A stretch of DNA of 64,000 nucleotides, from assembly GCA_000165345.1 (NCBI GenBank), contig CM000436.1, positions 576,001-640,000 on the forward strand. The letters run 5' to 3'. The notes under the pieces were generated by a model, which worked only from the letters and a program-made list of their open reading frames with translations, was not told where the DNA came from and did no database searches. Positions 1 through 64,000 of the stretch are shown here, piece after piece; position 1 is the stretch's first letter; every line of letters begins with the position of its first letter. A program made the translations under genes and the position numbers.

Positions 1-596
1 AATCTTGTCGTCTCAGATGCCGGTACTGCTGCAAATACAAGTATTGAAGAGTTAGATGTGGATGTATTAGAATATTTCAAAGCTAAATTATTGAATATAG
101 CTAATGCGAATGAAAGATCTTTAGCACCAATGGAAAGAAAAGCTAGGGAAAAACAATATCATTCTTTTTTGGGAAATACCCAATATTTCTCCGAATTTTA
201 CGATATGGAAATGATGTAAGTTAATATTATATTAATGATATTATAAAGAATATTAATTGGATTTAGATCAAATAATCTTCGCTTACACCAATCAAGTTTG
301 TCTCCTGATGAAAACAAAAGTCTCCCAAATTCTATATTAGATTGTGATGATATGGAGAATTTGGAACCTAAATTAAAACAAATTTCAACTCAAGATAAAG
401 GTAAGTTGATGAATAATCTAAACCCAAATTATGATTGAATGATTAATGATAAAAAATATGAACAATTAAACTGACAGAAATAGTTTCAATGATGGGAAGG
501 ATATGTAAAGAAATTAGTGTATCATTGGAGTCCAAGATTAAACCTTTTGAAATTAAAGAATTAAAGCTAAATTTTCAGCCGATTAATAAATTGTAG
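1..596 (+). CDS. 3' end of a multi-exon gene of unknown function; the 5' part lies upstream of the window
   Basis: Frame 1 is open from position 1 (…NLVVSDAGTAANTSIEELDVDVLEYFKAKLL…EFYDMEM) up to a GTAAGT donor at 216. An AG acceptor at 265-266 gives exon 267..400, which ends at a GTAAGT donor at 401. An AG acceptor at 476-477 gives exon 478..596, which ends at a TAG stop. Reading phase is preserved across both introns. No similarity to a known family recognised. Confidence 0.3.
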
Positions 597-658
597 ATAT
601 TACTGAATAATTATAATAGAACCTAGAGTGTTGTAGGGTCTAATGAAATAATATGAGT

Positions 659-1336
659 CTAAAGCTCATCCTTTGACTCTTGGTCGCTATTTTCTCCTTG
701 ATTATTTCTAGAAGAATGTAAAAGCATCATGATAGAGTTGAAGCTCCATAAATTATCACTACTGCTCTTGCTAACTATGGTTACTTCATATTGACCAACA
801 ATTGGACATCTTGGACAATTTCTGTTGTCAAATATGTGTCTTTTACTAACTGTTAGATACCCTTTAGCTTCAATATTATAAAGTCGAATCTTATCTTTAA
901 CATCAATAGTTTGTCCTGTATTCTTCTTTTCACATTCAACTCTAAAATAGCCACTAGATTCACCAGAACCACCAAAAATCTCAATTTGTCTACTTATCAT
1001 TGATTTTGAAGACTTATTAGATTGCACAAACTTCTCAGTAACTGAATGTAGTAAACGAATAGACTCCCCACATAATACAGGAAAGCCTGCACCCTTATAC
1101 TCAGCATCAGCTTCTCTAATGTAAAAATGTCCTTCTGAATCCAAATCTTTGCTACAAGTGACAGCCTGGTTACCATTTGCCCATGTTATCTTTGTCGTAT
1201 ATAAATGACATTTTGTATTTTGATGTAATACTGATACTGTACTTCCATAAGTAACCAATTCATTTTCTTCAGAATAAACACTTGAGAAAACCAGACCAAA
1301 GAAAACCACAACAAACCTCGTAAATAACCCAAACAT
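659..1336 (-). CDS. SDF2-like MIR-domain ER-lumenal protein (signal peptide, C-terminal KDEL)
   Basis: 225 aa. N-terminal hydrophobic signal (MFGLFTRFVVVFFGLVFSSVYS). Three MIR-like repeats (VTYGSTVSVLHQNTKCHLYT… / VLCGESIRLLHSVTEKF… / GQYEVTIVSKSSSDNLW) that follow the pattern of stromal-cell-derived factor 2. The C-terminus is …ESKDEL, an ER-retention signal. Confidence 0.7.
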   Translation of the reverse strand: MFGLFTRFVVVFFGLVFSSVYSEENELVTYGSTVSVLHQNTKCHLYTTKITWANGNQAVTCSKDLDSEGHFYIREADAEYKGAGFPVLCGESIRLLHSVTEKFVQSNKSSKSMISRQIEIFGGSGESSGYFRVECEKKNTGQTIDVKDKIRLYNIEAKGYLTVSKRHIFDNRNCPRCPIVGQYEVTIVSKSSSDNLWSFNSIMMLLHSSRNNQGENSDQESKDEL

Positions 1337-1428
1337 TCTACTAAGTTTTTGAAATCTGAACCGATTTTCTATATTCTTTGCGCAATATTCTCACTTTTCA
1401 TACTTGTTTTGACTAATTAAAAAGAAAA

Positions 1429-1466
1429 GTTGGCGCCATTTCCAGTGGGGCGCATTTTGCCCGCCT
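1429..1466. promoter_or_regulatory. GC-rich cis-motif cluster (GTTGGCGCCA … GGGGCGC … TTTGCCCGCC) in a divergent promoter
   Basis: Lies between the divergently oriented SDF2-like (-) and TPR/Aha1 (+) genes. It matches the E2F-like GGCGCC / CCCGCC motif family that recurs upstream of most genes in this window. Confidence 0.35.
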
Positions 1467-3496: not shown

Positions 3497-3728
3497 CTGG
3501 ACCTAACTGAGAATAATCATTTTTTATTTACCTATTTTTTCTGTTTTCTCTCTATATCTTAATCAAAATTTTCAACTATTCTTTAAATTACCAGCTCTCT
3601 ATTTCATTGTCTAAATCATGACCAAACTTGAATATTTCTATTAATAGCTCTCAATTACTATAAACCCTATCCCAAATTAACTTTATCCCACTCTAAATAT
3701 TCAGCCTCTGACAAATAATGCATGCACA

Positions 3729-3756
3729 TTTTCCCGCCAGTTATTTGGGCGGGAAC
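3729..3756. promoter_or_regulatory. Inverted pair of E2F-like sites (TTTTCCCGCC … GGGCGGGAAC)
   Basis: Two CCCGCC/GGCGGG half-sites in opposite orientation, 8 nt apart, about 470 bp upstream of the CID-domain gene. Confidence 0.3.
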
Positions 3757-6134: not shown

Positions 6135-6407
6135 TTTTTTTTAAATGAAATTGACCTATTTTTGACCTAGAATAAAAGTAACTTATAAAGAACTCCCTCT
6201 TATTTTTTCTCTATCCTTTATCTTGTTAGTCCACTATACACTTTTCTACTCAATTAAAGTCCTTTCCCCCTTTTTTTGTTGAACTCCCCACAACCTATAC
6301 CTGTGGAGGTTACCTTTTATTAATATTTCCAAATTATACAGCATAGACATATTTTCTGCGTTTTGCTTGCTTACAGACGATTTTCTTGTAGTATATACCC
6401 TCCCCAC

Positions 6408-6451
6408 ATGGCGCCGAGTCACGGGACTGCGGGGCAGTTGCCATGCATGTA
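6408..6451. promoter_or_regulatory. GC-rich motif block (ATGGCGCCGAG … CCATGCATGTA) in the PCNA divergent promoter
   Basis: A GGCGCC core plus an ATGCATG core between PCNA (- start at 6134) and the + gene at 6878. Confidence 0.3.
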
Positions 6452-6877
6452 AAAAAAAAGCAATAATTATGTACACGTAATAATTTTTTTTTTGTTTTTC
6501 TATTAATGGAAAGCAAATATAAATTGAGTTATTTTGTTATTAAAGCTCATATTAAGTAAGAATTTTTGTTTCCATATTTATTTATTCTACGTTATAGTAA
6601 CTTTCTTGTATTCAAAATATGATAGATGCTTGAAGCTAATTAAGAGATTCCTTCCTAATGTACTGCTGGAAAGTGCAAAATCAATAAGTAATATTTTAAT
6701 TCCTTAATAATCTTTTCTTTTCATCATTTAATTATTTATATATATATTCTCTAGTTACAAGGATTTCACACACATCTAGAAATGGTTTGCCGCCAATCTA
6801 TTTTTAGTTTGTGAAACTCTGCTAGGACTAAAAATCACAAGTATAAATATATAATTGAGCTTAGAGCATATTATAAA

Positions 6878-8203: not shown

Positions 8204-8734
8204 AGGACATTGAAAACGTTTGGGACGTGTTTCAAAGCTAATATTTTTTAGAAGGGTATTTTTTCTTAGAACGTAATTTCCAAAATTTATCAAGTTAAAC
8301 TCTACATTACGTGTTTGTCCACATGTACATTGCATGCAAACATCGGCATACGCAGCTAGAATTTGTTTAAAACTCCGGTTCTACCTTCTTAATACTAGGG
8401 CACACAGTAGAATAGCTTTAATAAATAATTAAGTAATACAATACTAAATAGTGGCGGCTAGTGCCGCCTGATAGGGCTACAATTCTAATACAAGGTGAAT
8501 GTCCACAATGAATAATATTAACCTGGAAAATCAGAGAATATGGGGGTTGCATTATTCATGAAGAAAAAGAAACCCTCAAATTCTGGATCAGCCATCTGAT
8601 AGATTAGTATGTCACAGTGCGTGGTTTACGTATCACCATAAATAGGAACTAAGTACCATCAATAACAAAGGTGAAGATAGAAATCGCTTCGATTATATAT
8701 ACATATCGAATTGCAACAAAGCAATATTGAATGC

Positions 8735-9148: not shown

Positions 9149-9410
9149 TCTTTCTTGATTTATTTTATATTCAATATATTTTTTTTTTGTTATATCAAAG
9201 TTGCGATTATCACACCTTCAAAATTGATAGAACTGTTTCCACTCCCATTACCGTTTTTTTTACTTTATTCATTATCCACACTTTCTCCCCACATCAACCC
9301 TCTTTTCATTTATTCCTGCCTTTCTAGTTGCTTATTTAGCCGCTATTTGGCCTCTGGCCACATATCTAATATTCCACGCAACGTCTTGTCTAGGCCCGGC
9401 TTGAATTATA

Positions 9411-9418
9411 GGCGGGAA
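9411..9418. promoter_or_regulatory. GGCGGGAA E2F-like site upstream of H2A
   Basis: About 265 bp upstream of the H2A start on the minus strand. Same motif family as the other promoters in the window. Confidence 0.25.
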
Positions 9419-10290
9419 TGACTTTATTGGTTTGGGAATTGGGTGGCAAGGTAATGGAGTAGTCAAAAATGCAAATGATGATGTAGAAAGATTACTAATG
9501 AAGACTGATTAGAATGAGAAAATATAGATTATTTGTTCATGATGATTACTGGTTAAATATTATTTTTATTAATGTTTTCTACATAATACTTTTATTTTAT
9601 TCTTAGCATATTTAGTACTTTTTTTTCTTAAATAAATTTGACACGTAATTGCATGCAATTTTTGCTATTAGATAATTTGTAGTTTTTTTTTGTATGTAAC
9701 ACCGGTATATACATTAATTTAGTTGCATGCATATCAGGATGTGTTATAAGTTCTAACAATGTTTTAAATAATATACAATTTAAATGTAAAAGATATTCGC
9801 CAAAAAGAAGTTATAGAATATTAATAGAATAATTAATTAATTTATAAAACAATGCAAGAATTTTAAAGAGTTAAATGTTGGAAAAGCTAATAATAATTAT
9901 AATATGACTTAACAAAATAATACAACAAAAAGTTGGTTATTATTATTTAATTATGAAAAGATGGTTTGAAAAAAAAATTGGATGGTTAAGCTTTTTTTCC
10001 CTACAAGAAAGGAAGGTTAAAATCATAACCTGGAAAAATCTGGGGGTAGGGGAAGAATTAAATAAATATACATTTATTTATCTCGACAAAAGAATTGAAA
10101 TACCATTAAGGTGGCATAAACCACACATTAAATGTAAATTTTGGACATAAATTTGAGAATTTAGTATTTAAAAAATAAAAGAAGTAATATATTATTACAA
10201 GAAATATATAATTTCTGTAATTAAATCAATGTAGTATAATATTAGTAATTTAGCAAAACAAAAAAATCATAAATTTTAAATATATTTAAA

Positions 10291-12790: not shown

Positions 12791-12823
12791 CAGGGCGGGC
12801 AACAGTTGGCGCCAAAATCTCGG
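12791..12823. promoter_or_regulatory. CAGGGCGGGCAACAGTTGGCGCCAAAA composite E2F-like element
   Basis: A GGCGGG half-site and a TTGGCGCCAA palindrome about 70 bp upstream of the actin-related protein ATG. Confidence 0.35.
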
Positions 12824-14428: not shown

Positions 14429-14456
14429 TTGCATGCAATTGGCGCGCGCGCCAAGC
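14429..14456. promoter_or_regulatory. TTTGCATGCAA + TTGGCGCGCGCGCCAA (AP2-like site plus a perfect 16-bp GC palindrome)
   Basis: Located about 90 bp upstream of the RCC1-repeat gene ATG. The two motif classes sit directly next to each other. Confidence 0.4.
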
Positions 14457-15916: not shown

Positions 15917-15971
15917 TTACACGTAATAATTACGTGTAATTAAAAATTCTTCCCGCCTGCATGCATGCAAT
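15917..15971. promoter_or_regulatory. Near-perfect palindrome TTACACGTAATAATTACGTGTAA followed by TTCCCGCC and TGCATGCATGCA
   Basis: Two inverted CACGTAAT units plus E2F-like and AP2-like cores, lying between the RCC1 gene and the HAP2-like gene. Confidence 0.35.
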
Positions 15972-16471
15972 AAAACTTGTCACCGGTATATGATTTTATT
16001 GACCACATAGATTTATGGTGTTAGTGAGCAAATTTTAGTAATAATTTTTTTGTACACAAATAAAATAATTATTCTTTTTTAATTAATAAGTGAATCATGA
16101 GTTTGGAATAACTTTATTATTAAAAAAAAAAAGAAAATCAAACTATTAATTTAGAGATTGATTAAATAATTTTTAATTGACATAAAGTTTGTTTAAAGAA
16201 TATTATTAAAAAATAAGGAATTGGATAAAGTGATATGATGAGTATTTAACAGTATCAGCTAAAATAATTAAAGTTATGGAGGAAAATCTATAAATATTTT
16301 TATTTGTTAATATGACCACACAAATAATAAGAGAATAATTAAAAAGTAAAATAGTGTGGGAGTTAAAAAAAGAATAAGTCGTTATGAAAGATATATAAAT
16401 TTATATGTAATGGTTTAAAATTGAGAGAAAATTTAAAAATTTAAGATGAAAGAAGAATAAAATAATATATA

Positions 16472-19325
16472 ATGGAGAAAATTATTTATTTATTATTAAT
16501 ATCAATAAACTGGTTGGTAGGAAATGCTATTTCACAGTTAATTGTGTCAGAACAAGAAATGTGTATGAATGGACAATGCAAAAAAATGTTGAACGGTCAT
16601 TTAGTTATACAGAATAATCAGGTAGGCTTATTTTTTTTTAGTAAAATAATAATTGAAAATTAAATATTTTGAAATTAATTAATTTTATAGGATGTATCGT
16701 TGAATTTTGGATCATCAGAAGTAAATGGAAAGAATGCAAAAGAAGCAGACCCAGGTTCTAATGGATTTAAGATTACAATAAAGAAGTCTCCAATATTAAT
16801 TGCATATGATTTGAGTTATATTTCAACTTTATATCATGATTTTCAAGAAGATATAAAATTGTTTTCGTTTACTCAAGTTGAAGGTGACCCATCTAGATTT
16901 TGTAATCATGAATTGAGAAGTTGTCAGAAAGTGAGAGACGAGTATTTATATGGAACACCAAATTGTAAGTTTTAATAAATTATTTTGAATTTAGCAATAT
17001 CTTAATAAAACATATTTAAAATGATTTATAGTGCCACCAGGTCAAAAAAATTGGACTCAAGAAACTCCAATACCACCTGGATCACAAGGATCGTGTTGTT
17101 GGTGTCCAGAATTATATGTAACGGTAAGTTCAATTGAATTAAAGTGCTGGAGGAGGGGCTTTTTATTAGGGATTAAGGTTTTTTATATTAGAGAAATTAA
17201 TGACATATTTACTCCCAATTAAATAATTTTTTTTTTTAGATAAATACTGATGCACCATTTTCAAGAGCTACATTACATTGTTCATGGATACGTAAGTTTA
17301 ATATATTACAAATGGAAATAATTTATTGAACTATTTTAAACTATTTATAGAGCAAAGAATGTGGTGGAATGTTTACTTATCGAAGTCATGCCCAGTTTGG
17401 ATACCACCATGGTGGACAGCTTTTAGAATAGGTGGATGGAACTGGCAATACTCATTAGAGGTTGAATTATCTTGGTTTAGTCCAACAGAATCATCAATTA
17501 ATAAGTTATCAAGTACAGAATTGGAAAATATGGAAAATGAATGTAAGAAAGAAAATAAGGATTCCACAATAGATTGTTCAAGATTAAGGCATAAAGAATC
17601 AGGAATTCAGACTTCTGTACATACATTAAATTCATCGTCTCCATCATTCTATGATCCAAATTTTGGAGCTTCAGTACAGGTAATAAGCTCAGGACCACCG
17701 TTTGGGAGTGCTAATGCAAAGGATTTGAATGGTTATTACATGTTACAACCAACATTTTCACCAAAAGGGATGCCTGCTAGTATTTCAATTCCTCCTTTAA
17801 GAAGTGGGTGTGGAAAAGCTTCAAAAAACCAAACAGAAGAGGAAATAAATGATTGTTTAAAGCCAACATTAATTATTCCTCCAGAAAATGCAGACTTTAC
17901 AGGAGTTTCATGTGATAAGATAGGAACAAGTGTTCATACTTGGAGTTCTGTGAACGGTAGATTTTGCTATCATCCACCTGGTACTTGTCAAAGAGCTCAG
18001 ATAGCTCACTTTTATAAGAAAGTTATAGAAGATCATTCACTTGGAAAGATTTCACAATATTCAGTAAGAGCACAAAATTCTGGTTCTCCACAGTTGATTT
18101 TGGATTCATTAGGAGAAATTGGTCATGAGGAGATGGATCAAAATGATATGGGAAATATAACTAATATACAATCACGCAGATTCTTTTTGGGATATAATTT
18201 TGATTCAATCTTTGACACAGAAATAATGTTCTCAGTCGAAGCTTCTTCTGTGTCTTGGGTAGCAACATCTTCTCCTGGAATTATTACATTTATAGAACCA
18301 CCACCTTTGGAGGCTTGCACAGCAATGAGTAGTTTTGGCTGTCCTCTAAAGGTTTATATTAAGAATAGTGGTAAGTTTGAATATATATATATATACATTT
18401 CGAATTGAATTGAAAATAACTTAACAAAAATATTCTATAGGGGATATTGATTCAGGTTTTGTAGTTCAAATACCTTATTGTACAAAGTCAGGAGTACAAA
18501 CAAGTGAGGTAGGTTTGTATTTAATTCATTCAAATTTATATAATTAATTAATTTAGGTTGATCCAATAATGGCACAAACAAAGAAGATTAAAGCCAATTC
18601 AATAGGAATTTTTACTTTTGTATTGGGAGTTTCCGTATTAACTGGGAGTGAATATAAGTGCGTGGTAAGTATATATATATTTAATGCATCCAATATATGC
18701 ATGCATACAATAAATGCATGCATGCAATATATTGGTAAACACTATTAAATAACAATATTAAATATTATTTCTATTCAAATAATAGGTTGTGTTGTATAAT
18801 TCATTTTCAGTTCAACTGGATCAGAATATGTTCACTTTTTCAACAACTTCTACAACGGTAAGTTTATTTGAAAGAAGATATCGTTTTTGAATCTTAATAT
18901 TAATTATTAATATAAATATTTTGATATCAAATTGAAAATTTAAGATTTCAATTGCAAGTTCAGATTCAATAATTTCTGATGTAGTAGTGAATCAAACTTC
19001 GTTAACAAACAAAAAGTTTGATTCTATGTTTACAGGAAATAAATGTATTTCTTGTGGATTAAATTTTTGGTGTTTAATAGCAAATAGTAAGTTAAAAATG
19101 AATCATTCTTTTAAAATTTAAAATAATTAAAATAAATTTCAGTTAAAGATTGTATTATGTTAGGTATTAAATGTATAGGGATAATACTTGGATTGATAAT
19201 AGGATTTGTTATATTATTAAAGTTGATAAAGATAATACTTGAACTACGTAAAAATAAGAAAATTGAAACAAGGATAATTAATAATAGCCAAGAAAGTTTA
19301 AGTCAAGGTATTAATAGGAAGAATT
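16472..19325 (+). CDS. HAP2: HAP2/GCS1-like gamete-fusogen candidate: 10-exon gene encoding a signal-peptide, Cys-rich, single-pass membrane protein
   Basis: Exons, all with GT..AG boundaries and consistent phase: 16472..16621, 16691..16964, 17032..17123, 17240..17291, 17351..18370, 18441..18508, 18557..18664, 18785..18856, 18945..19086, 19141..19325 (TGA stop). The model is about 720 aa. The N-terminus is a signal peptide (MEKIIYLLLISINWLVGNAIS). The ectodomain carries SQGSCCWCPELY and GRFCYHPPGTCQRAQIAHFY motifs, which resemble the conserved HAP2/GCS1 domain (CC.C … C.RF… H.F). A C-terminal TM helix (IKCIGIILGLIIGFVILLKLIKIIL) is followed by a short basic tail. The ORF track shows only the exon-sized fragments 16472.., 16700.., 17031.. 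and 17326... Confidence 0.6.
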
Positions 19326-19397
19326 GATTTGAATTGAAGTAAAACAAACAAAACAAAAGAAGCAATGAAAGTATATTAAAAGTTAATTAATATGGGC

Positions 19398-20560
19398 CTA
19401 GCTGAAAAAATTATTATTAATAATTTTGCCAGTATTTTTATCAATATGAATAGTAATGACTCCAAGATTTGGTAATTGCCATAATACAGATCCTAATAAG
19501 TGGAAATTAATTGATTAATTTAATTAAAGTTGAAATAATCAGAATTTCAATAAAAATACCTTTTAAAAGCCTTTTCAAGAAGTAATAATGGGATACCAAT
19601 ACGATTTCATTATTTTCAAGATCTTGATAATTCTTGATAAAATTAATAAATTGTTGAATTCTTTGATCCACTTGTTCATGATCTTCTGGAAGTACAATAT
19701 AATCTTTAAAGTTGGTGTCAGGAAGAAATGATATATCAGCTTTTGGGTAATTTTTGATAATTTCTTCCTTAGATAAACAAGGAACATCTGATATATATAG
19801 AGCTTTTTCTCTAACAAAATCCAATACACAAATTTTGCAATTTTCAGAAGATCTTTTTGAAATCAAATTTGAAGTTTCCATGGCTCTTCTTAAGTTGGAA
19901 GTAATAATCAAAGAAGCTCTTTCCATTATTGGTTTTCCTTTATATGTTGGCTAATTCAGAAATGTTTCAGGAAAAAAAAGTACAATTATTATAGAAAGAT
20001 ATTAAGTAAAGTTATTATTGGTTTAAAATATATGACCATATAATTGTCACTTACACCACCATTATCACCAAAATTATTCGCTTTTTCAACTCCATACTTG
20101 GATAAAGGAGCATCCAAAATACCTAAAGATTTAAAGAGTCATGTAATATATATTTATTGGTATTTTTATTTAATAAGTTTATTCCTGTTTAGTTAGTCTA
20201 TTATAATCCATTCAAATGTATTAATTAGATTGGATTATACTATTCTATTATAATAGGAAATGAACTTAATAACTTACCTGGATCTTTACTAGATAATAAT
20301 TCGTGTATATTCAAGGTTTTAATATTATGGTTTCTTAAGGCATTCATGGTACTTTCAGCATGTCGTATACAATGTACGGTGACAATATTCTTATATTTGG
20401 TTATTGGTTGGTTAGTTATAGCAGTATTGAATTGTTTCTCGCATTTTGTTTGGTTATTTGTAATTTTCCCAAATAGAGGAATGGCTATTTTTTTAAAGTC
20501 CAAGTTTTTGTTATTTTTTTGGAAAACAAATTTTTTCAAGATTGTTTTAACTTGAAGCAT
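19398..20560 (-). CDS. Histidine phosphatase (phosphoglycerate-mutase family) protein, 4 exons
   Basis: Minus-strand exons: 20278..20560 (ATG; contains IVTVHCIRHAEST, the RHG catalytic motif), 20055..20122 (GILDAPLSKYGVEKANNFGDNGG), 19560..19950 (…LIITSNLRRAMETSNLI… IVLVSHYYFLKRLL), and 19398..19492 (TAG stop). Donors are GTAAGT, GTAAGT and GTATTT. The last intron is the least certain. The alternative is read-through to the stop at 19507, as the ORF track has it. Confidence 0.5.
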
Positions 20561-20895: not shown

Positions 20896-20952
20896 TTTGC
20901 ATGCAAAAATAAATGTTATTAAAAACAATTAGGCGGGCAATCCGAGCGGGTC
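20896..20952. promoter_or_regulatory. TTTGCATGCAAAAA … AGGCGGGCAATCCGAGCGGGTC motif cluster in a divergent promoter
   Basis: Lies between the PGAM-like gene (- start at 20560) and XRN (+ start at 21200). It contains both AP2-like and E2F-like cores. Confidence 0.35.
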
Positions 20953-28781: not shown

Positions 28782-29124
28782 GTATATGTGATTAATTAAT
28801 TAATTATGTATTACTACATATAATCATTCAGTTAGTATGTATTTGTATTACATGCGAATTTATATACTAATATTAATATCCTTAATCAGATAAGTTTCAG
28901 ATATTATTTAATAAAAATTCCTTACTTTTCCCTAAATCCCTTAATTTTGACCCTTCAATTCTACCTCCTCCAAACTATATTATTTGTATTTCCCCTTATA
29001 ATGTTAAACTTCCTTTCCTTTTCCTCTTTCTCCAACCTTTTCTTTTATATCTATCAAAAAATCTCCGATTTACCCCTCAGCTCACTAAATCAATCCCTTA
29101 ATCAAGAAGGCGGCACATCAATGT

Positions 29125-29155
29125 GGACGGGCGCGCACATTTGAAGTGCATGCAG
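29125..29155. promoter_or_regulatory. GACGGGCGCGCACATTTGAAGTGCATGCAG (E2F-like GGCGCGC plus AP2-like TGCATGCA)
   Basis: Located in the divergent promoter between the GPI transferase (- start at 28512) and the coiled-coil gene (+ start at 29311). Confidence 0.35.
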
Positions 29156-33873: not shown

Positions 33874-33972
33874 GTTGGCGCCTTGGCGCCAACAAAATAT
33901 GATTATTTGTAGTTGCATGCATTGAAAAAATTTGCCACGTAATGTAAATGCAAGTAGAGTTTGCATGCAAAC
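33874..33972. promoter_or_regulatory. Dense motif cluster: GTTGGCGCCTTGGCGCCAAC (tandem/palindromic E2F-like), GTTGCATGCATTG, GCCACGTAATG, TTTGCATGCAAAC
   Basis: Located in the divergent promoter between the tetraspan gene (- start at 33415) and the AN1 zinc-finger gene (+ start at 34167). All three recurrent motif classes occur within 100 bp. Confidence 0.4.
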
Positions 33973-34166
33973 AACGGTGTGAATAAAAAAAAAAATCAAT
34001 TAGTTTTTTTTTAAAAAGTGGGAATAATTTAATATATAGAGATTCAGAAGAAAAAATAAATTGTGGATTATTGTTTTTTCTTCTTTTTAAAGAAAACCAA
34101 GATATAAATGATTGTTTTTAAAGAGGAATTTTTTTAAGAGCAAAATAGAATAAAAGGAAAGTCAAA

Positions 34167-35200: not shown

Positions 35201-35244
35201 ATGGCGCTATGGCGCCACTAATGAAGGAGGAGAACCCGCCAGGG
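35201..35244. promoter_or_regulatory. ATGGCGCTATGGCGCCACT … GAACCCGCCAGGG
   Basis: A tandem GGCGC(C) pair and a CCCGCC site 80-120 bp upstream of the SNF2 ATPase ATG. Confidence 0.35.
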
Positions 35245-40344: not shown

Positions 40345-40973
40345 ATATTCAAAGATATTAACACATGAAGTTGTATCTCTTTCATTTTCTCATGGTACTT
40401 TTTTATGTGAATTTAAGATCCACATAATATTTCAAGTATTATTTGTATTACTCAAAATAACTATATATTGAAACTTTGGCGCTTACTTTAGATAGTTTAT
40501 GTATGCACTTAATGGCTTACATGTACGGGCGCCAACAAATTGGAGTGGTTTGACCCAAATTCGTGATTTTTTTTTTTTAAATTAATTAATTAAGAGAAAA
40601 AGCAAACCTACACGTTAGGGATAGGACAACTAATGAAAAGTAGAAAAAATGGTATAAAGTTGATATTTTTAGAGCATATGATTAAGTTAATAAAAAAGTG
40701 AAAAGTATATGTATATATACATATATATTATTTAGTGAGATAGGAGTGGGATAGGGTACAAATTGCAAGAAATATTTCTCAATTCTCCTATTTCCCTTAA
40801 ATTAGGAATGATTAATAAGGTTAAGAATTAATTTACTAATTCTTTTTTTCTTTTTTAATTTAAATTAAAAAAAAAAAAGAGAAGATAAAGTGATTTATTA
40901 TTTAGTATTTAGGTTATAGGATTTAGACTCTACTCATTCTGTAATAAGAAAAGTTAAAGAAAAGAGATCAAAA

Positions 40974-41810: not shown

Positions 41811-42100
41811 CAAATCCTCTATTACTTCACAGAGACAATTTATCACATATTTCGATACTTAATTTTATCTCAAATTTAAATCTAATTCATTTTTTAATTA
41901 ATTTTCCCACATTTATTTCACACGTAATTTTCTTTTTTCTATAACGGTTTTCCATGCATTTTAACACTTGGCGCCTAAATTTTTGTGTGTGTACAAAATA
42001 ATTTAAATAATTAAATAAATTAAAAGTGCAATTGAAAAAATATTATAAGGAAAGTTAGAAAGCCAGAATTCAATTAAAATAGAAGAATATTCAGGTTAAT

Positions 42101-42891
<791 letters not shown>

Positions 42892-43279
42892 TTTACATTA
42901 TCTAGATCATTTTATTAGCATTTACTTGTAATATTGTCAAATTAAGATTTCTGAGTTGCCGCGCGCGCCCAAAACTTTGTCTAAAATTCTATTTTGTGAT
43001 TTTGACCCCGGAAAAAATAGTATTAATAAAAGTAGAATAAAGAATAAATAAATGGGCAATTTGATTGAACAATGTTCACAAAAAAGGAAGCTTTAGAGGG
43101 CCTTTTGAATTAAAGTACTAGTTTAAGTTTTATTTTAATAATTTTGACGGAAATTAACGCTCCAAAAAGATTATAAATCAAATTATTACGCTTACACAAC
43201 AACCTATAATGCATAAACTCATTATGGTTTTATTAATAATGCAAATATAATAATAAATCGAAATTTTAAATAAATAATA

Positions 43280-45469: not shown

Positions 45470-45700
45470 CTTCTCCAATTCATATAAAATTATAATAATT
45501 TAATTGTCTTTACCATTTGACTCTTTTTTCTACACTATTATTTAAATCCAGCTACTTCTACTACTACTACTACTACAAGCTTTCACTTTTCTAACGCATA
45601 ACACTAACTCGCTTTTATTGTTACTCTCAGCATCTAATGCATAATCCTATTTCAAGCTCTACAAATACTCATCCACCAATGCTACAATTCTTTGCGCATG

Positions 45701-45741
45701 CACGCATGCAATCTTGCCCAGATTCTACCCGCCAAAATCGC
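45701..45741. promoter_or_regulatory. TTTGCGCATGCACGCATGCAATC … CTACCCGCCAAAATCGC
   Basis: Tandem GCATGCA cores plus a CCCGCC site, about 400 bp upstream of the transhydrogenase gene. Confidence 0.3.
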
Positions 45742-46152
45742 TTTACTTTTTTTACTATGCCTTATATAATTTTTTCATGCAAAATGCAAACCCGCTCAAT
45801 GTTGCCGCCCGACACGTGTCAAAAGTCTCGCCGGTATATGCATAAATAATATTTTTTATTGCAATGTGAACATTGCAATTGCATGTTTGAAAAAGGTAGA
45901 GATTAAGATAAAAAAGAAGAAAATAACTCGAGCCAAAGTTTAAATTTGTTTATACAAAAAATTTATTTATATATTTATATTAAATAAGAGGTTTAATAGG
46001 CTGAGAAACTTGGAGTATACCCCTAAATATAAATATATAATAAATTAGAGAAAGTCGTGATAACCGATAAAGCTAAAAATTGAGTGTATACAGGCTTGCG
46101 TTGTATCTTTTAAAGAAAAAGGAGAGTATTTACCACTCCAAAGGAGTGAATA

Positions 46153-51119: not shown

Positions 51120-51800
51120 TAATATATTGGAGACGCGTGAGACACGACATTTAGTACCGGCGTACATAGGCGGGTAATTCAGCGCGAAGGGTGGGGAATT
51201 GTCTCAGAACCAATCAATTCTTTATAAGGCAGAGGGTATAAAGCCAAGTTGCAATTTTAAAAGATATACGAAAGAGCTGAATTTAAAAAGAAGTAATGCG
51301 GGTAATAGACATTTCGGGAGCAAAAATTGCTATAAGTGGATCCTAGAGGAGATATATTTGGCGGGAAGCCCACAGGTAAATACCAATGTGTGGGTACTTC
51401 AGCGCCTGGGAGGTTTATTAGTTAGAATGAAAAAAATTGAGGTTGAGTAGACCTAACGGCATTTATGATTTCACTTCTCCTATTGGTAGGTATTCAGATT
51501 CGTATTGCCGGACATGTAATGTAAAAATTAATATTGAGTGCCTGAATCCATGTGGCGCCAAAATTGTATTTTGTGTTGTATGGGCGAGTAATGCAGTAGT
51601 AAGATAATGTTGGTAATAGTAATTTCAGTATAGTAGCGGTAATATTATTGTTAGCAGTAGTAGTATTTATAATAGCAAAGCAGAAGTTGGCTTTAGAGAT
51701 GAGTAACTGCTCTCTATGTCTTTAGGAATTTTACTTGAAGAATTAGACTAAATTTTTAGCATAAAAGACAATGATTTGGCGCGCTGCTAAAAATTTACAT
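51120..51800. other. GC-elevated non-coding block in a 1.2-kb intergenic region (candidate structured ncRNA or complex regulatory region)
   Basis: It has no ATG ORF; the ORF-track entry 51199..51450 starts at a TTG. Its composition is clearly less AT-rich than the neighbouring intergenic DNA. It contains several GGCGGG/GGCGCC/GCGCGC cores (51165-51195, 51550-51566, 51774-51793) and self-complementary stretches. I could not match it to U-snRNAs or tRNA by eye. Confidence 0.2.
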
Positions 51801-53260: not shown

Positions 53261-53278
53261 CTTTAGGCGGGTAATTCC
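53261..53278. promoter_or_regulatory. CTTTAGGCGGGTAATTCC E2F-like site
   Basis: About 150 bp upstream of the PPIL4 start on the minus strand. The same AGGCGGGTAATTC string occurs again at 51166-51181. Confidence 0.3.
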
Positions 53279-53620
53279 TCACTAAGTGTTACCGGTATGC
53301 ATTTTTTTTATTTCTTAAAAGACTATATTTACCGTCATTTTTTTCATGTGGACAACAAAAAATTAAAAATTGTTAAAAAATATTACATGCTCGTATTTTA
53401 GTAGTAAAAGGAAAGGGAAAGAGAAAACTACAAAATAGGAGAATTTGTAACAGACAATAAACTTCGTAGAATATTACTAATTTATGAGAAAATAATAAAG
53501 TTCAATATTGAATCAAGAAGGGTAGAACAAAAATATTTAAGAATTATTGAGAACTCTTTTCTTTATTTCCTTTGGATTTGCTACTTTAACTGGCTTGAAT
53601 TAATCTGACCATTTCAAAAT

Positions 53621-54748
53621 ATGAGCAAAAAGAATGATGCTCGACCTTGCTCTAAAAGGTTTTTAAAATTTCCAAAAATGGGCAGTTCACTAAAAATATA
53701 CACACAAGGTATGAAAATAATAGTCGATAGTTTTTACTGTTAAGCCAAAAGCCCTCTAGTATTAAATTCTTTTAATATTTATATTGGAATGCAGTAAGAA
53801 CCATAGAAAACGGATAAGCTACTTTTGTCTCAGTAATCTTCATGTATGATTTTGTTTTGATCATCAAAGATCAAGAGATGATCTGCTAAAGAGAGACTTT
53901 GATGGCATAAGTTAGCTTTAATTAACGCTAAAATTTGAATTCCACTAACTATAATACCCCTTTTACAAATTGTATTTTTTTTTTTTTTTTAGAAGAATCT
54001 GAACCTGAAAAATTTCAAGTAAGAAAAAATAGTGCACTTGATAACTTACTTGAGTTATCGTTTCCACCAGTGAGGTCTTTTGATGGAGAAAAAAGGTAAA
54101 GTTAAAAATAATAGCATTTTGCTTGATTTGATTTAGTTTAATTCAAACGATTCTTAATATATATTATACATCAACTATTAATACACTTTTTAGATCATAT
54201 GAATTTCGATACCCAAATAGCAAAAGGTCACTATTCCCATTTGAACTAACACCTAGAACGCTCTGTTGTATAGATAATATTAAAATGGGAGTGAAAACGG
54301 TAAGTATGATAGCCTCAATTTTTCTGGTATCAATCTTATTATTACCTAATTTAATATATCTATTTCTCCCATATTTTCATAGGGAGCTATAATTGGATCT
54401 ATCTTTGGCGGAATCAATGGTGCATACCATGCACTAAAATACAGGAATTATATGGCAATTCCAGTCTTTGCTGTAAGTCAAAAACTAATTCAGAGTCAAA
54501 TTTCGTTAATAATCTTATCCCTTTATTAGATTGGTGGAGCCATTAGTTTTGGATTCTTTCTTGGGTGTGGGATGATAGTTAGATGCCAACCCTCAGAATT
54601 TACCAATTATAAATTTCATAATAAATGTAGTCAGGTCATTTTTCCAATATACTTTAATAAGATTGAAAGAGTTTCCCGCCAAGACTTCAAAATACATGAT
54701 AATTTGAACAATTTCTACAAATTCCAAAATGATAAAATATCAAAATAA
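53621..54748 (+). CDS. Small 5-exon gene encoding a glycine-zipper (GxxxG) two-helix membrane protein (Tim17/PRAT- or TMEM14-like?); not in the ORF track
   Basis: Exons: 53621..53708 (ATG, MSKKNDARPCSKRF…; donor AAG|GTATGA), 53993..54095 (donor GTAAAG), 54194..54299 (donor GTAAGT), 54383..54472 (GAIIGSIFGGINGAYHALKYRNYMAIPVFA; donor GTAAGT) and 54530..54748 (IGGAISFGFFLGCGMIV…; TAA stop). Phases are consistent. The first intron (about 284 nt) and the exact 3' end are the least certain parts. Confidence 0.3.
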
Positions 54749-56367: not shown

Positions 56368-56435
56368 CACCACGTAATACAATTTTTATACCTGCATGTA
56401 ATTTTTACTATTCATTTCCATCTTGGCGCCAATCC
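56368..56435. promoter_or_regulatory. CACCACGTAATAC … CCTGCATGTAAT … TCTTGGCGCCAATCC
   Basis: CACGTAAT, TGCATG and GGCGCCAA motifs lie 300-360 bp upstream of CDC45. Confidence 0.35.
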
Positions 56436-58854: not shown

Positions 58855-59012
58855 TAGAGTAGATATTCATCTTAGGATCTTTTACTAGTATTAATCTTTA
58901 AATATTATAAGAAAGTATATATTATGTTTAAAATATAATGATAAAAATAAATATTATCATTTTTTTTGTCCACATTAAATTTTGTTACCGTTGTTTACTG
59001 CCATTTGCATGC

Positions 59013-59091
59013 ATGCATTCAAATTACAATTTAATTACGTCATTTTAAAATTTAATTCCCGCCTAGTTTGTGGAGCAAATCATGCATCTTG
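59013..59091. promoter_or_regulatory. ATTTGCATGCATGCATTC … TAATTACGTCATT … AATTCCCGCCTAGT … ATCATGCATC
   Basis: All three motif classes (AP2-like, ACGT-core, E2F-like) occur 370-440 bp upstream of the DAG kinase ATG. Confidence 0.35.
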
Positions 59092-61501: not shown

Positions 61502-61561
61502 CTGCATGCATACAAGGCGGGTGACTTCCCCACAAAACTATGACCGGTTTGGCGCCAATGC
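61502..61561. promoter_or_regulatory. CTGCATGCATACAAGGCGGGTGAC … GGTTTGGCGCCAATGC
   Basis: A TGCATGCA site directly abutting a GGCGGG site, with a TTGGCGCCAA site 25 bp downstream. It lies about 270-320 bp upstream of the V-ATPase G-like gene. Confidence 0.35.
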
Positions 61562-61827
61562 ACTCACAAATTTGTATAAAATAAAGTAGTAAAAATAGAT
61601 TGGGAGGAAAAATTGGGAGAAGATTGGAATAGTGTGGCTAGAAATTAAAAGGAAAAAAATTTTATAAGAAGCCAAAAGTGTCTATGGAAAAAGGAAAATC
61701 AAGCTTATAGCAAAGATTTTTTTTAATTGCTTGGGTGAATATACTAATACCTATTAATTTGAGATAATAAGACTGAATTTTGCATGTTGTCAATAAAACT
61801 AAAGTTTCATTAAGAAAATGAAATAAA

Positions 61828-62577
61828 ATGTTTAATATTTTTATATGTTGTACCCATGGCAATTTAAATAATTCTTCAACCGAAGATAAAGAAGAATTAA
61901 TTTTTGAACTTGATAAAGAAAAGGATTCCCAAGGAAAAAGTTTAAGTGAGACCTTTCAAAACTCTATTAGAGAGTTAAAGAAAGCAGAAACAGAGGCTCT
62001 AAAAATTGTTGAGAAGGCAAAGAAGAATAAAAAGGATTATTTACTTCAAGCAGAGGCTGCAGCTGAAGAAATTGTTAAGCCTTACTATGAACTTGCAAAT
62101 CAGGAGTATAAAGAAATTGAAGATTCACTAAACAAAGAGTTCCACATCAAGTCTTTAGAAAATATCTTGGAAATACAAGAAAGTTCTGATAATATTGAAG
62201 AAATTGATCTAAAGGAGAGAAAGAAGCAGACTATAGAGTATATATATTCCAAAATTTCAGATGTGAAGCTTATTTTAGAAAATCCAAAGTATGTAAAAAG
62301 CCAGTTAGAGAAGCACAAAGTTAGTAAAGTTCATCAAAAGAGACATCTAATTAGGAGTAGATTTTTGTCTTGGAGAAGTAAAGATTACACAGAAAAGGAG
62401 AAAGAGTCACAAAAGAAGCATAAACAAACCAATAAAGAAAAAACGATATCTTTCTCTGTTGAAAAGAAGGATTCATCAATGTCAACCATTGAATTAGATG
62501 AAGATTACTCGAGGATAGATAATTTATACGGAGCATCTCGAGTTGTTAATTCTTTCAATACAATACATTTGAATTAG
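61828..62577 (+). CDS. V-type ATPase subunit G-like protein with N- and C-terminal extensions
   Basis: 249 aa. The central region …SIRELKKAETEALKIVEKAKKNKKDYLLQAEAAAEEIVKPYYELANQEYKEIE… follows the V-ATPase G N-terminal helix pattern (QQLLQAEK.A.E.V..AR…KQAKEEA..E…YR). The later …IYSKISDVKLILENPKYV… matches the conserved …VCDV+P.VHPN motif. The N-terminus is MFNIFICCTHGN (a di-Cys). The C-terminus is basic and K-rich. Confidence 0.5.
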   Translation: MFNIFICCTHGNLNNSSTEDKEELIFELDKEKDSQGKSLSETFQNSIRELKKAETEALKIVEKAKKNKKDYLLQAEAAAEEIVKPYYELANQEYKEIEDSLNKEFHIKSLENILEIQESSDNIEEIDLKERKKQTIEYIYSKISDVKLILENPKYVKSQLEKHKVSKVHQKRHLIRSRFLSWRSKDYTEKEKESQKKHKQTNKEKTISFSVEKKDSSMSTIELDEDYSRIDNLYGASRVVNSFNTIHLN

Positions 62578-62638
62578 AATTTCTATTTTAATTTTAAAAA
62601 AAAATGCACATAGGATTTTATTACTTTAAAACTTGTAT

Positions 62639-64000
62639 CTATTTCCTATTATCTAAAGAGCTATGGATTGCTCCAGAAATATAATGTAAGATTTTGGTAG
62701 AAATAATGACAAATTGCTGTGAGTAATTGCAAAATGAGGAGAAGTTACCAGTTAAATATGAGTATATAAATGAAGCAAGAAGCAAAAGTAGGGTAACTAG
62801 GACTGGAGATGTTAATACATAAGTAATCTCATCGAATCCCAAGATAATTATTAGCAAATAAATCCACCAGGGAATGTTTTGTGGTTGTCTTCCTGTTGAT
62901 TGTATTAGCTGAGCTTTTGAAAATATACTTGTAATTTCTTGTGATGCTTTAGATTCAATTTCTTTAAGATTACTTTCCGATATCAAAGGTACCGAATCTA
63001 AAAATTTACCATTTCCATGATCTTTATTCAATGCAATTATTCCTGAAAGATCCTCAGAATTTTCGATAATCTTATCAAACAGATTGGAGGATCTACCAGA
63101 AAATGGAATTAGTTGGTCTTTTCTTGGGTAGAAAACATTAGTAATCTGAAGAGAGTTATTTTTAGCTTTAATGAAGAGTTCCTTCATTATCTTAGCATCC
63201 TCTCCTATCCATTGTCTGGGTACTCCATCCTGATCAAGCTCAAATTCGCTTTTAAATCTATCTACAATATTAATATGGAAATACTTTGACTGTTGTTGGA
63301 TTAATTGTATGAACTTTAATACAAGTTGAAGAGCAATTTCTTCTTCTAAACCAGAAGAAGTGAATTCATTCATATTAGAATTCTTAAATAGAGTAATCCA
63401 TTGTTGTTCATATTTGGAAACAAGAAGTCTATGGATATTGACTATAGAGGAACCAGTTAGCTCCCAAAAATCATCTAATTTGAGTTTTGGATCAGAAAGA
63501 AAATGATCGCCAAGAAGAGGAGAGATCTCTTTCAAAATATCCTTAATTAAACTCTCAAAGAACTCTTCAACAAGCTTTTCATAAATCTTCTTGGAGTGGA
63601 TCTCTAAAGTCTCACTTAGTAACTTTCTTTGTTCTTGAGTATTATAAGTAGCTAAGAAAACTTCTTTTCCTTGAGAGTTTAGAGAGATTTCATTCAGAAT
63701 ATCAGGAATACATTTTTCTTTAATAGGAGAGATAAGATGCTGCCTAGATATCACACTTGGGAATTCAGTTTTCCATTTTAAAGATAAGGAGTCAAATTTA
63801 AGAAGTTCTTTATTTACCCAAGAAGATGAATCAAAGGACACATAGTGGCTTTCTTCATTGCTTTCTTTATCATATTGTACTTGATGGTCTTCAATTCCTT
63901 TCTTATAGTAATCAAGAATGTTAGTATATTGTCTCAGATCTTGTCTCTCCAGAGACATCCTAGAATTGACAGCATTTTGGAATTCATGGAATATAAATAC
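62639..64000 (-). CDS. SEY1: RHD3/Sey1 (ER-fusion dynamin-like GTPase), C-terminal part only; the N-terminal GTPase domain lies beyond the 3' edge of the window
   Basis: The minus-strand frame is open to position 64000, with no stop upstream of the M at 63958. The encoded region is the long helical-bundle middle domain of RHD3/Sey1 (…EFPSVISRQHL… LVSKYEQQWITLFKNSNMNEF…). It is followed by the two closely spaced TM helices (…IPWWIYLLIIILGFDEITYVLTSPVLVTLLLLLASFIYSYLTG…) and a short tail. Confidence 0.7.
   Translation of the reverse strand, partial: VFIFHEFQNAVNSRMSLERQDLRQYTNILDYYKKGIEDHQVQYDKESNEESHYVSFDSSSWVNKELLKFDSLSLKWKTEFPSVISRQHLISPIKEKCIPDILNEISLNSQGKEVFLATYNTQEQRKLLSETLEIHSKKIYEKLVEEFFESLIKDILKEISPLLGDHFLSDPKLKLDDFWELTGSSIVNIHRLLVSKYEQQWITLFKNSNMNEFTSSGLEEEIALQLVLKFIQLIQQQSKYFHINIVDRFKSEFELDQDGVPRQWIGEDAKIMKELFIKAKNNSLQITNVFYPRKDQLIPFSGRSSNLFDKIIENSEDLSGIIALNKDHGNGKFLDSVPLISESNLKEIESKASQEITSIFSKAQLIQSTGRQPQNIPWWIYLLIIILGFDEITYVLTSPVLVTLLLLLASFIYSYLTGNFSSFCNYSQQFVIISTKILHYISGAIHSSLDNRK

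Follow-up and report, generated by a model that had tools for sequence, protein, structure and literature searches.

Clustered candidate E2F, ApiAP2 and ACGTAAT-type sites in the intergenic spacers of a 64-kb stretch of Cryptosporidium parvum chromosome 8

Do the short spacers between Cryptosporidium genes share a recurrent promoter vocabulary, and how many elements does it contain? This question was raised by a stretch of 64,000 nucleotides (NCBI GenBank assembly GCA_000165345.1, contig CM000436.1, positions 576,001 to 640,000 of the forward strand; the whole stretch is referred to here as the window), in which a first-pass annotation had described a three-part grammar of E2F-like boxes, ApiAP2-like sites and a further element, (C)ACGTAAT. 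The window is part of C. parvum chromosome 8, covers cgd8_2150 to cgd8_2390 and neighbouring genes, and is AT-rich (~30% G+C). Gene regulation in Cryptosporidium is poorly understood, with few recognisable transcription factors and six catalogued motifs. Our analysis showed that E2F boxes, AP2_1 sites and a further element, (A)CACGTAAT, occur in clusters in this window, and these are probably transcription-factor sites.

The gene map comprised 31 genes and was based on NCBI gene calls for the same contig, to which Pfam domain assignments were added. Its 30 spacers were short and AT-rich and amounted to 15,008 bp (23% of the window), compared with 49 kb of gene sequence; 22 were promoter-bearing (at least one gene start, in divergent or tandem arrangement) and 8 were convergent (1.9 kb in total). 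All 6-, 7- and 8-mers in the spacers were scanned in an unbiased manner, with Markov models of order 1 and order 3 fitted to the same spacers as backgrounds, and excess in the whole window was judged against dinucleotide-preserving shuffles.

We found eight copies of CACGTAAT in the spacers, where 0.21-0.50 were expected (P from 8e-11 to 6e-8, which passed a Bonferroni correction over all 8-mers), and none in the 49 kb occupied by genes (P=9e-6 for an exclusively spacer location of all eight). The element ranked 6th (order-3) to 11th (order-1) among spacer 8-mers and, after removal of AT/poly-A repeats and overlapping variants, was the third motif class behind GGCGCCAA and TGCATGCA. The shorter ACGTAAT occurred 11 times in the whole window (3.65 expected). 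One-mismatch variants of CACGTAAT were not enriched (42 observed, 31 expected), and the element is therefore sharply defined. Its consensus was (A)CACGTAAT, with an invariant ACGTAAT part and both strands in use: all sites had the ACGT core and the GTAAT half, and the other half read CAC at eight sites, GAC at one and TAC in C. ubiquitum. An inverted ACGTAAT pair was formed only by the site upstream of HAP2. Loci matching [C/G]ACGTAAT were present in 7 of 22 promoter-bearing and 1 of 8 convergent spacers, three of the eight loci being in divergent spacers, and the median distance from ACGTAAT to the nearest start codon was 393 bp.

The same element recurred outside the window. As an external set we used C. 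parvum long non-coding RNA (lncRNA) sequences, genome-wide, from the FASTA supplement of Li et al. 2021 (PMC7840661), with counts made among the matches listed. Among these matches, CACGTAAT and its reverse complement accounted for 12, compared with 4 each for CACGT followed by ATA, TAA, AAA, ATT or TAT (Poisson P=9e-4), and 8 of the 12 copies had A at position -1; in the same listed matches, TGCATGCA occurred 35 times and the control TGCTAGCA 3 times. Five external CACGTAAT contexts all lay outside the window (four by exact match, Cp_lnc_214 by context comparison), and each had TGCATG nearby and most also an E2F-type box. One read GGCGCCAAC-AACACGTAAT close to TGCATG; others read ATGGCGCC-CGAACACGTAAT followed by TTGCATGCGCATG, TTCCCGCC-TGCCACGTAAC followed by ATTACGTGCATGCA, and ATTACGTGTTTGCATG followed by TTTACCGCCAAA; the remaining one contained GCCGGTATAC, ACACGTAAT, TGTCCACA, TGCATGCATGC and ATTACGTG in that order. 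The proposal of (C)ACGTAAT as a further recurrent element was thus statistically borne out, both in the window and beyond it.

Its independence was not. All eight [C/G]ACGTAAT loci had TGCATG or CATGCA 8-38 bp away, in either orientation and with variable spacing. When each ACGTAAT position was randomised inside its own spacer, a mean of 1.4 of 8 lay within 40 bp of TGCATG/CATGCA, and 0 of 20,000 trials reached 8 (P<5e-5). A perfect TGCATGCA was found within 40 bp at 5 of the 8 loci (P=5e-5). Since every instance was coupled to TGCATG, CACGTAAT is better regarded as a partner of the AP2_1 site than as the separate third class that had been suggested. The order of the elements varied: for example, CACGTAAT adjoins TGCATGCA at 9642, TGCATGCA stands on both sides of the element at 33914-33969, and upstream of HAP2 the inverted pair CACGTAAT-A-ATTACGTG precedes TGCATGCATGCA. 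ACGTAAT modules also contained E2F boxes, the G-box CCCCACA, TTGTCCACAT, and CCGGTATA or an AACGGT-type element. The three proposed classes did recur, but their number was not exactly three: the G-box CCCCACA, TTGTCCACAT and CCGGTATA-type elements also recurred in the same modules, so the grammar has more parts than had been proposed.

Some of these additional elements could be followed across the window. TTGTCCACAT/ATGTGGAC recurred in spacers beside TGCATGCA and ACGTAAT at 8316-8325, 29121-29128, 53346-53353 and 58967-58975. All four window copies of GTCCACAT were in spacers, and this sequence matches Motif5, TTGTCCACATK, of the lncRNA-upstream motifs in Table S3 of Li et al. 2021. An AACAnCGGTA / CACCGGTATATA element, located at 9696-9709, 15977-15992, 8340-8351, 33970-33981, 45826-45840, 53286-53299 and 58985-58996 (minus strand), followed TGCATGCA in several modules; among CCGGTA sites, 5 of 6 were fully kept in C. 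sp. chipmunk genotype I (P=0.004). The AACAnCGGTA-type element may correspond to the lncRNA-upstream Motif4 (matches such as CCTATACCGGCTGTC), and it partly resembles Myb YAACGG. Besides, the repeats ACTACTAC/TACTACTA were in excess in spacers.

The E2F-type boxes were far more widely distributed. Perfect TTGGCGCCAA was present in four copies, and with at most one mismatch it occurred 9 times in the window (0.71 expected); many boxes had T-rich or A-rich flanks. GGCGCCAA, among the leading 8-mer classes, occurred 14 times in spacers, compared with 0.06-2.7 expected (order-1 to order-3 Markov). Taken together, GGCGCC, GCGCGC and GGCGGG boxes numbered 33 in spacers, and GGCGCC or GGCGGG was found only 4 times in the 49 kb of genes. 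Boxes of these three types were present in 20 of 22 promoter-bearing and 0 of 8 convergent spacers (Fisher P=8e-6); the convergent spacers comprise only 1.9 kb, in which ~4.7 boxes were expected from density and none was seen. The statement that nearly every upstream spacer carries a GC-rich motif accordingly holds for this class. GGCGCC boxes had a median distance of 276 bp to the nearest start codon. With a consensus TTTSSCGC or palindromic TTGGCGCCAA, upstream placement and conservation at orthologous positions, the GGCGCC/CCCGCC boxes are, by motif match, candidate binding sites of E2F/DP. In C. parvum, two E2F and two DP genes have been reported, and E2F motifs dominate the peaks of sporozoite assays for transposase-accessible chromatin with sequencing (ATAC-seq; Xiao 2025).

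The palindrome TGCATGCA (BGCATGCAH) was present in 18 perfect copies, several of them overlapping tandems, compared with 0.56 expected in the window. Fifteen of the 18 copies were in spacers (0.12-1.0 expected, order-1 to order-3 Markov), three lay beyond the long HAP2 open reading frame (ORF), and none was inside a long ORF. AP2_1 sites occurred in 10 of 22 promoter-bearing and 2 of 8 convergent spacers, and the median distance of TGCATGCA to the nearest start codon was 448 bp. The palindrome itself, its excess in non-coding DNA and its conservation at orthologous positions match TGCATGCA to the ApiAP2 AP2_1 site (motif 1 of Oberstaller 2013), and binding by such factors is predicted. Four C. 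parvum AP2 domains (cgd2_3490, cgd1_3520, cgd5_4250 and cgd8_3230) bind TGCAT in vitro on protein-binding microarrays (PBM), and TGCATGYR marks macrogamont genes. E2F and AP2_1 motifs also precede C. parvum lncRNAs (Li et al. 2021). The assignment of two classes to E2F/DP and ApiAP2 therefore agrees with the published C. parvum motif catalogue as well as with our tests of enrichment, promoter specificity and conservation.

To assess conservation, we compared the window with syntenic sequence of seven other sources. Coverage was limited to the left third of the window for C. hominis, C. tyzzeri, C. meleagridis and C. bovis, and the regions round PARG, zf-AN1 and CDC45 from C. sp. chipmunk genotype I and C. 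ubiquitum together covered most of it; gene order was the same in all compared species. Motif identity in chipmunk genotype I/C. ubiquitum was compared by permutation with random spacer windows over 13.4 kb of aligned spacer. TGCATGCA was the best conserved motif tested (0.90/0.88, background 0.73/0.59; P<=0.0006). GGCGGG had identities of 0.89/0.82 against the same spacer background (P<=0.006) and was fully kept in C. ubiquitum at 7 of 12 sites (1.7 expected), and TTGGCGCC was fully kept there at 8 of 14 sites (1.2 expected; P<2e-4). The modules at 33875-33981, 56371-56432, 58968-59063 and 61503-61558 were conserved in both species. For [C/G]ACGTAAT, which adds GACGTAAT, identity was 0.85/0.71 (P=0.05/0.10), and individual sites fell into well-kept (9642, 33936, 56371 and 59034) and drifting ones (6474, 8306, 15920/15929 and 41921). 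These tests thus gave strong support to the two known motifs and weak support to CACGTAAT.

Several observations weigh against a functional third site and have to be set beside its enrichment, replication and coupling. CACGTAAT proper had an identity of 0.83/0.67 against a background of 0.73/0.58, which was not significant (P=0.10/0.21, n=8), and its columns hardly exceeded the adjoining +-10 bp in conservation; conservation as proof of CACGTAAT function was therefore rejected. The copy at 6474 persists through C. meleagridis, is found as CACGTAAG in chipmunk genotype I and has been lost from C. ubiquitum; the ACGTAAT arm at 8306 is lost in C. meleagridis and more distant species; and the 41921 site reads CACGTGTT in chipmunk genotype I and is not conserved. 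From the MIR-domain gene to HAP2, where its orthologous spacers amount to 6.3 kb, C. bovis had neither CACGTAAT nor TGCATGCA and showed a few E2F-type boxes only, which may reflect a different cis-regulatory vocabulary or placement in this lineage; with spacers that could not be aligned, it was rejected as a distant footprinting partner. The excess in the external set was only 3-fold, and that set is mostly antisense to coding sequence. In tandem spacers, moreover, the upstream stop codon preceded ACGTAAT by 84-180 bp and the downstream ATG followed at 180-640 bp, so the target transcript of the element is uncertain. With strong enrichment, replication and coupling on one side and weak conservation on the other, we regard (A)CACGTAAT as a real, recurrent and, at the level of sequence, credible new candidate cis-element.

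The explanation that we consider probable is that the three classes are transcription-factor sites, with E2F/DP boxes as a near-universal promoter element and TGCATGCA as the ApiAP2 element of a promoter subset, about half of the promoter-bearing spacers. Most likely, a sequence-specific factor would bind (A)CACGTAAT and act with TGCATG-binding ApiAP2 proteins, tuning the stage-specific or cell-cycle output of the AP2_1-promoter subset, which may include bidirectional or antisense-lncRNA promoters. By analogy, candidate binders are the single non-CCAAT bZIP and an ApiAP2 domain that either has no assigned motif or has a CACACA-type motif. A more specific proposal, which we put forward tentatively as possible rather than likely, is that (A)CACGTAAT is a putative site of an unassigned factor (for example the non-CCAAT bZIP) that would be an obligate partner of TGCATG-binding ApiAP2 proteins, and that this factor, along with TTGTCCACAT and CCGGTATA-type elements, would make up a composite regulatory module by which a subset of AP2_1 targets (here HAP2, H2A, PCNA, CDC45 and DAGK) is chosen for one stage or for S phase. 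The strict coupling to TGCATG would also fit a multi-domain ApiAP2 protein, and CACGTAAT could then be a variant or secondary site of a known ApiAP2 specificity (CACACA, AP2_2 or G-box-like) or the site of a second AP2 domain of the TGCATG binder, leaving a two-part grammar. With the preferred -1 base the site becomes ACACGTAAT and has ACAC in common with the CACACA motif that four C. parvum AP2 domains bind, and Oberstaller 2013 placed CACGTA with ACACAT and GCACAC under 'Motif 2'. However, the invariant part is ACGTAAT rather than ACAC: the best conserved site, at 59034, is GACGTAAT, and the 9642 site reads TACGTAAT in C. ubiquitum. CACGTAAT does not look like G.GGGG. In its main text, the PBM study summarises the recurrent AP2 specificities as TGCAT, CACACA and G-box with no mention of an ACGT-core motif, and the distance to TGCATG (0 to 38 bp) and the variable orientation argue against a rigid two-domain footprint. 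We consider this explanation unlikely.

The position of ACGTAAT in tandem spacers bears on a different alternative, in which the ACGTAAT/TGCATG modules do not serve the downstream genes. They would instead promote antisense or intergenic lncRNAs, or act as boundary or 3'-end signals where upstream genes end. Besides the proximity to upstream stop codons, one module (8306) is located in a convergent spacer, and published lncRNAs are mostly antisense and 3'-end-biased, with E2F and AP2_1 motifs <=100 bp upstream (Li et al. 2021). The external CACGTAAT examples come from lncRNA sequences, one of them 20 nt from an lncRNA 5' end, and TTGTCCACAT and the TATACCGG-like motif are the reported lncRNA-upstream motifs 5 and 4. 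Yet three of the eight loci occupy divergent spacers, where no gene has its 3' end close by, and either strand is used, so there is no strand-specific RNA signal; a reading of CACGTAAT as an RNA element of 3' untranslated regions (UTRs) was rejected on the same two grounds. As a full replacement for promoters of the downstream genes this explanation seems doubtful to us, and even here the element would be a transcription-factor site and only the target transcript would differ. Because of their closeness to upstream 3' ends in tandem spacers, and once in a convergent spacer, the modules may drive antisense lncRNAs in addition. Finally, the recurrence of CACGTAAT could be a chance or compositional artefact of AT-rich spacer that was noticed post hoc: only eight exact copies exist, their conservation is not significant and one-mismatch variants are not enriched. 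This is very improbable given that eight copies against 0.2-0.5 expected pass the Bonferroni threshold under both Markov orders with none in coding sequence, that the element replicates in independent lncRNA sequence, that the coupling to TGCATG has P<5e-5, and that the FIRE program detected CACGTA independently in a genome-wide analysis.

The individual sites were distributed along the whole window. All sites listed in the first-pass annotation exist, most within 0-3 bp and all within 0-10 bp of where it had placed them; the largest offsets concern CACGTAAT at 6474 (placed at 6466) and TGCATGCATGCA at 59006-59017 (placed at 59016). It had not listed TGCATGCA at 3719, 5254, 8331, 9724 and 18698-18726, E2F boxes at 1719, 6410, 42959 and 51776, or ATTACGTG at 8306. 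In the left part, the divergent MIR/TPR-Aha1 spacer has E2F boxes TTGGCGCCAT and CCCGCC with the G-box GTGGGG at 1430-1465 and a second box, GTGGCGCCAA, at 1719-1728, their positions being kept in all six intestinal-clade species. Upstream of the CID-domain gene (3719-3755), TGCATGCA is followed by the inverted E2F pair TTCCCGCC, GGCGGGAA. The divergent PCNA/PARG spacer (6402-6481, plus strand) contains a CCCCACA G-box, the E2F box ATGGCGCC, CATGCATG and CACGTAAT (6474-6481), and the convergent PARG/H2A spacer (8306-8351, minus strand) contains ATTACGTG, that is, CACGTAAT on the minus strand, with TTGTCCACAT, TGCATGCA and AACATCGGCATA. An E2F box, GGCGGGAA, at 9411-9418 (plus strand) is 263 bp before the H2A start codon and is kept in all six species, with the G-box CTCCCCACA at 9283-9293. 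Further along the divergent H2A/kinase spacer (9642-9731, plus strand), CACGTAAT adjoins TGCATGCA and is followed by AACACCGGTATATA and a second TGCATGCA; the block AAATTTGACACGTAATTGCATGCAATT of this module is unchanged from C. parvum as far as chipmunk genotype I; its C. ubiquitum version is TACGTAATTGCATGTAATT, set in diverged flanks.

The BAF53-like actin gene is preceded at 84 bp by GGCGGGCA and the perfect palindrome TTGGCGCCAA (12794-12815), and the RCC1 gene at ~100 bp by TGCATGCA adjoining the extended E2F palindrome TTGGCGCGCGCGCCAA (14430-14454), whose GCGCGC core is kept to C. ubiquitum. Upstream of HAP2 (cgd8_2220), the module at 15920-15994 consists of the inverted pair, TTCCCGCC, TGCATGCATGCA and GTCACCGGTATATG; it is recognisable in all six species, and each ACGTAAT arm drifts by one base in some of them. 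Three further TGCATGCA copies at 18698-18726 are within the annotated HAP2 span, 290 bp past the end of the long ORF (18408), and could be in an intron or in an internal or antisense promoter. The divergent His-phosphatase/XRN spacer has TGCATGCA and GGCGGGCA at 20898-20939, and the region 29121-29154 has ATGTGGAC (GTCCACAT on the minus strand), the E2F-type GGGCGCGC and TGCATGCA. In the divergent cgd8_2280/zf-AN1 spacer (33875-33981, plus strand), tandem TTGGCGCCTTGGCGCCAA, TGCATGCA, CACGTAAT (33936-33943), TGCATGCA and AACAACGGTGTG follow one another; this module is wholly kept in chipmunk genotype I, and C. ubiquitum retains TTTGCCACGTAA with the eighth base changed.

In the right part, tandem E2F boxes ATGGCGCTATGGCGCCAC and CCCGCC (35201-35240) are ~100 bp upstream of the SNF2/Brahma gene, and the E2F-type TTGGCGCT and GGGCGCCAA (40476-40535) are downstream of SNF2 and upstream of the next gene. 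At 41921-41977 (plus strand) there are CACGTAAT, TAACGGTT, CCATGCAT and TTGGCGCCTA, and at 42959-42970 an E2F-type box, CCGCGCGCGCCC, upstream of a 729-aa gene and kept in chipmunk genotype I and C. ubiquitum. The spacer upstream of the transhydrogenase gene (45696-45842) contains GCATGCACGCATGCA, CCCGCC, CACGTG and GCCGGTATATG; the ApiAP2-type site noted at 45705 is present, but as CGCATGCA, a 7/8 match and not a perfect TGCATGCA. Four E2F-type boxes (GGCGGG at 51169, GGCGGGAA at 51360, GTGGCGCCAA at 51552 and TTGGCGCGCT at 51776; 51169-51785 in all) occupy the 1.2-kb spacer upstream of the cold-shock-domain gene, and both chipmunk genotype I and C. ubiquitum have comparable E2F boxes. At 53266-53299, GGCGGGTA and TTACCGGTATG lie in the divergent spacer of cyclophilin-RRM (cgd8_2350) and Romo1. 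The boxes reported at 20931, 53264 and 61516 likewise exist, but as GGCGGG followed by CA, TA or TG and not as GGCGGGAA. CDC45 (cgd8_2380) has CACGTAAT, CTGCATGTAAT and TTGGCGCCAA 300-360 bp upstream (56371-56432, plus strand), this CACGTAAT being kept in chipmunk genotype I and reading CACGCAAT in C. ubiquitum. Between CDC45 and DAGK (cgd8_2390; 58968-59063, minus strand) we found GTCCACAT, TTACCGTTG, TGCATGCATGCA, AATTACGTCA (TGACGTAATT on the minus strand) and TTCCCGCC, of which AATTACGTCATT, the TGCATGCATGCA-type site and TTCCCGCC are all kept in both species. The module upstream of the V-ATPase G gene (61503-61558), with TGCATGCA, GGCGGGTG, the G-box TTCCCCACA and TTGGCGCCAA, is near-invariant in chipmunk genotype I and C. 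ubiquitum. The direct adjacency of different classes, reported in the first-pass annotation for three places, was confirmed at 14430-14454, 33875-33981 and 61503-61558.

Regarding the genes themselves, the products of four long ORFs (PARG, BAF53-like actin, NAD(P) transhydrogenase and CDC45) were identical to C. parvum chromosome 8 proteins, in agreement with the Cryptosporidium origin implied by the first-pass annotation, and CryptoDB identifiers from the supplementary tables of Oberstaller 2013 assigned PCNA to cgd8_2150, PARG to cgd8_2160, HAP2 to cgd8_2220, zf-AN1 to cgd8_2290, PfkB to cgd8_2370, CDC45 to cgd8_2380 and DAGK to cgd8_2390. Public gene models disagree for identical sequence at 16559-19327, 19398-20560, 53621-54748 and 42101-42891: depending on the annotation, HAP2 has 609, 691 or 713 aa and His-phosphatase 139 or 278 aa, and the Romo1 gene and a 119-aa gene are each annotated in some assemblies only. 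Because annotations of the same sequence differ, spacer boundaries are approximate at these genes. The 119-aa gene model (42101-42891) has an intron-like gap, and an (ATA)n microsatellite located there, at ~42770-42810, is longer in C. parvum than in chipmunk genotype I and C. ubiquitum. Neither an Rfam scan at gathering thresholds nor a tRNA scan revealed hidden RNA genes in the spacers.

Two observations concern the histone H2A gene. The H2A-proximal 240 bp of the H2A/kinase spacer (9149-9390) is a near-invariant block in six species, includes CCACACTTTCTCCCCACA (a G-box) and TTGGCCACATATCTAATATTCCAC, and is probably the H2A 5' UTR and core promoter. On the other side of the gene, a hairpin, GGCGGC-ACUA-GCCGCC (6-bp stem, 4-nt loop, then ACUAU), is present at 8428-8473 on the minus strand, the H2A sense strand, ~262 nt 3' of the H2A stop codon (8735). 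This block is 100% conserved from C. parvum to C. ubiquitum, and the stem-loop is retained in C. bovis although the rest of the spacer cannot be aligned. Among Rfam families it matched RF00032, the histone 3' UTR stem-loop, best and on the correct strand, but its 19.4 bits fell short of the gathering threshold, 34 (E=0.011 for the 531 nt searched). Our literature search found no link of SLBP or histone stem-loops to Cryptosporidium histone genes.

What would the third element add to current knowledge? For E2F and AP2_1, two of the three classes, the window yields again what had already been published, which is a useful check but not new. An element tied to AP2_1 could help explain how the common TGCATGCA, bound by at least four ApiAP2 proteins, gives gene-specific expression, and (A)CACGTAAT would provide a bait sequence for identifying a new factor. 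A 2025 review of C. parvum motifs lists six (AP2_1, AP2_2, G-box, E2F, GAGA and CAAT). In the Cryptosporidium literature searched, CACGTAAT was not found as a named separate element: a full-text search for ACGTAA or CACGTAAT with Cryptosporidium returned primers only, Mullapudi 2007 has no ACGT motif, and the motif is absent from papers dealing with F-RBP, with lncRNAs, and with the AP2 protein cgd2_3490 and macrogamonts. Table S3 of Oberstaller 2013 contains a FIRE hexamer, CACGTA/TACGTG, informative for expression clusters 39, 42, 45 and 83 (Z=6, robustness 6/10), filed with ACACAT and GCACAC under 'Motif 2, G-box-like' (DTGTGGGG); no ACGTAAT site in the window contains or abuts a GGGG/CCCC run as part of a motif with the G-rich core G[T/C]GGGG. 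None of the window genes looked up was in these four clusters (PCNA 121, PARG 104, HAP2 103, zf-AN1 112, CDC45 88, DAGK 124). Table 2 of the same study counts one C. parvum bZIP besides CCAAT-binding factors. E2F and AP2_1, two of the three motif classes here, are textbook C. parvum promoter elements, described since 2003-2014.

The window is best understood by comparison with known systems. An E2F/DP upstream motif of C. parvum was reportedly recognised by Bankier in 2003. Such a motif is treated in Mullapudi 2007, and motifs 3 and 4 of Oberstaller 2013 are E2F-like (DTTGSCGCCH and TTTGGCGGGAAV). The sequences found here (TTGGCGCCAA palindromes and TTTCCCGCC/GGCGGGAA) are identical to the published motif, which is the commonest upstream motif in both cases; the window boxes precede the replication genes PCNA, CDC45 and H2A and are kept across species. 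There is no substantive difference, tandem or extended TTGGCGCCTTGGCGCCAA and TTGGCGCGCGCGCCAA being local variants, and the E2F boxes are another instance of known biology. AP2_1 sites in the window show the same palindrome as published, in non-coding DNA only, and stand here before the late or sexual-stage genes HAP2 (cluster 103) and DAGK (cluster 124). In contrast to the published description, copies are also found in two convergent spacers and as a triple within the HAP2 gene span, and a subset is paired with ACGTAAT, a pairing that we did not find described in the literature.

With regard to the third element itself, bZIP proteins recognise ACGT-core elements such as plant G/A-hybrid boxes (the Opaque-2 site) and ATF/CREB-PAR hybrids such as TGACGTAA, and TGACGTAAT at 59034 is, we assume, a textbook ATF-like sequence. 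Like these, CACGTAAT is built round an ACGT core, whose two halves read CAC- or GAC- and GTAAT, and an inverted pair is present upstream of HAP2. However, only the GTAAT half is invariant, most CACGTAAT sites are not palindromic and the bZIP repertoire of the parasite is minimal; a bZIP or bHLH attribution from the ACGT core would be an analogy. The lncRNA-upstream motifs 4 (CCCATACCAGGTGGA) and 5 (TTGTCCACATK) in Table S3 of Li et al. 2021 correspond to partner elements, in that TTGTCCACAT and TATACCGG/CCGGTATA-type elements share window modules with ACGTAAT and TGCATGCA; CACGTAAT is absent from the five motifs of that study. In the literature searched, the element shows up only as the FIRE hexamer CACGTA. 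That study gave just six bases, at a low Z, put them with a G-rich motif to which they are unrelated, and neither named nor discussed them; it describes neither the whole 8-9-mer (A)CACGTAAT nor its conservation and coupling to TGCATG. The core of the hexamer is shared with CACGTAAT, and its clusters 39 and 42 are also TGCATGCA clusters, which fits the coupling observed in this window.

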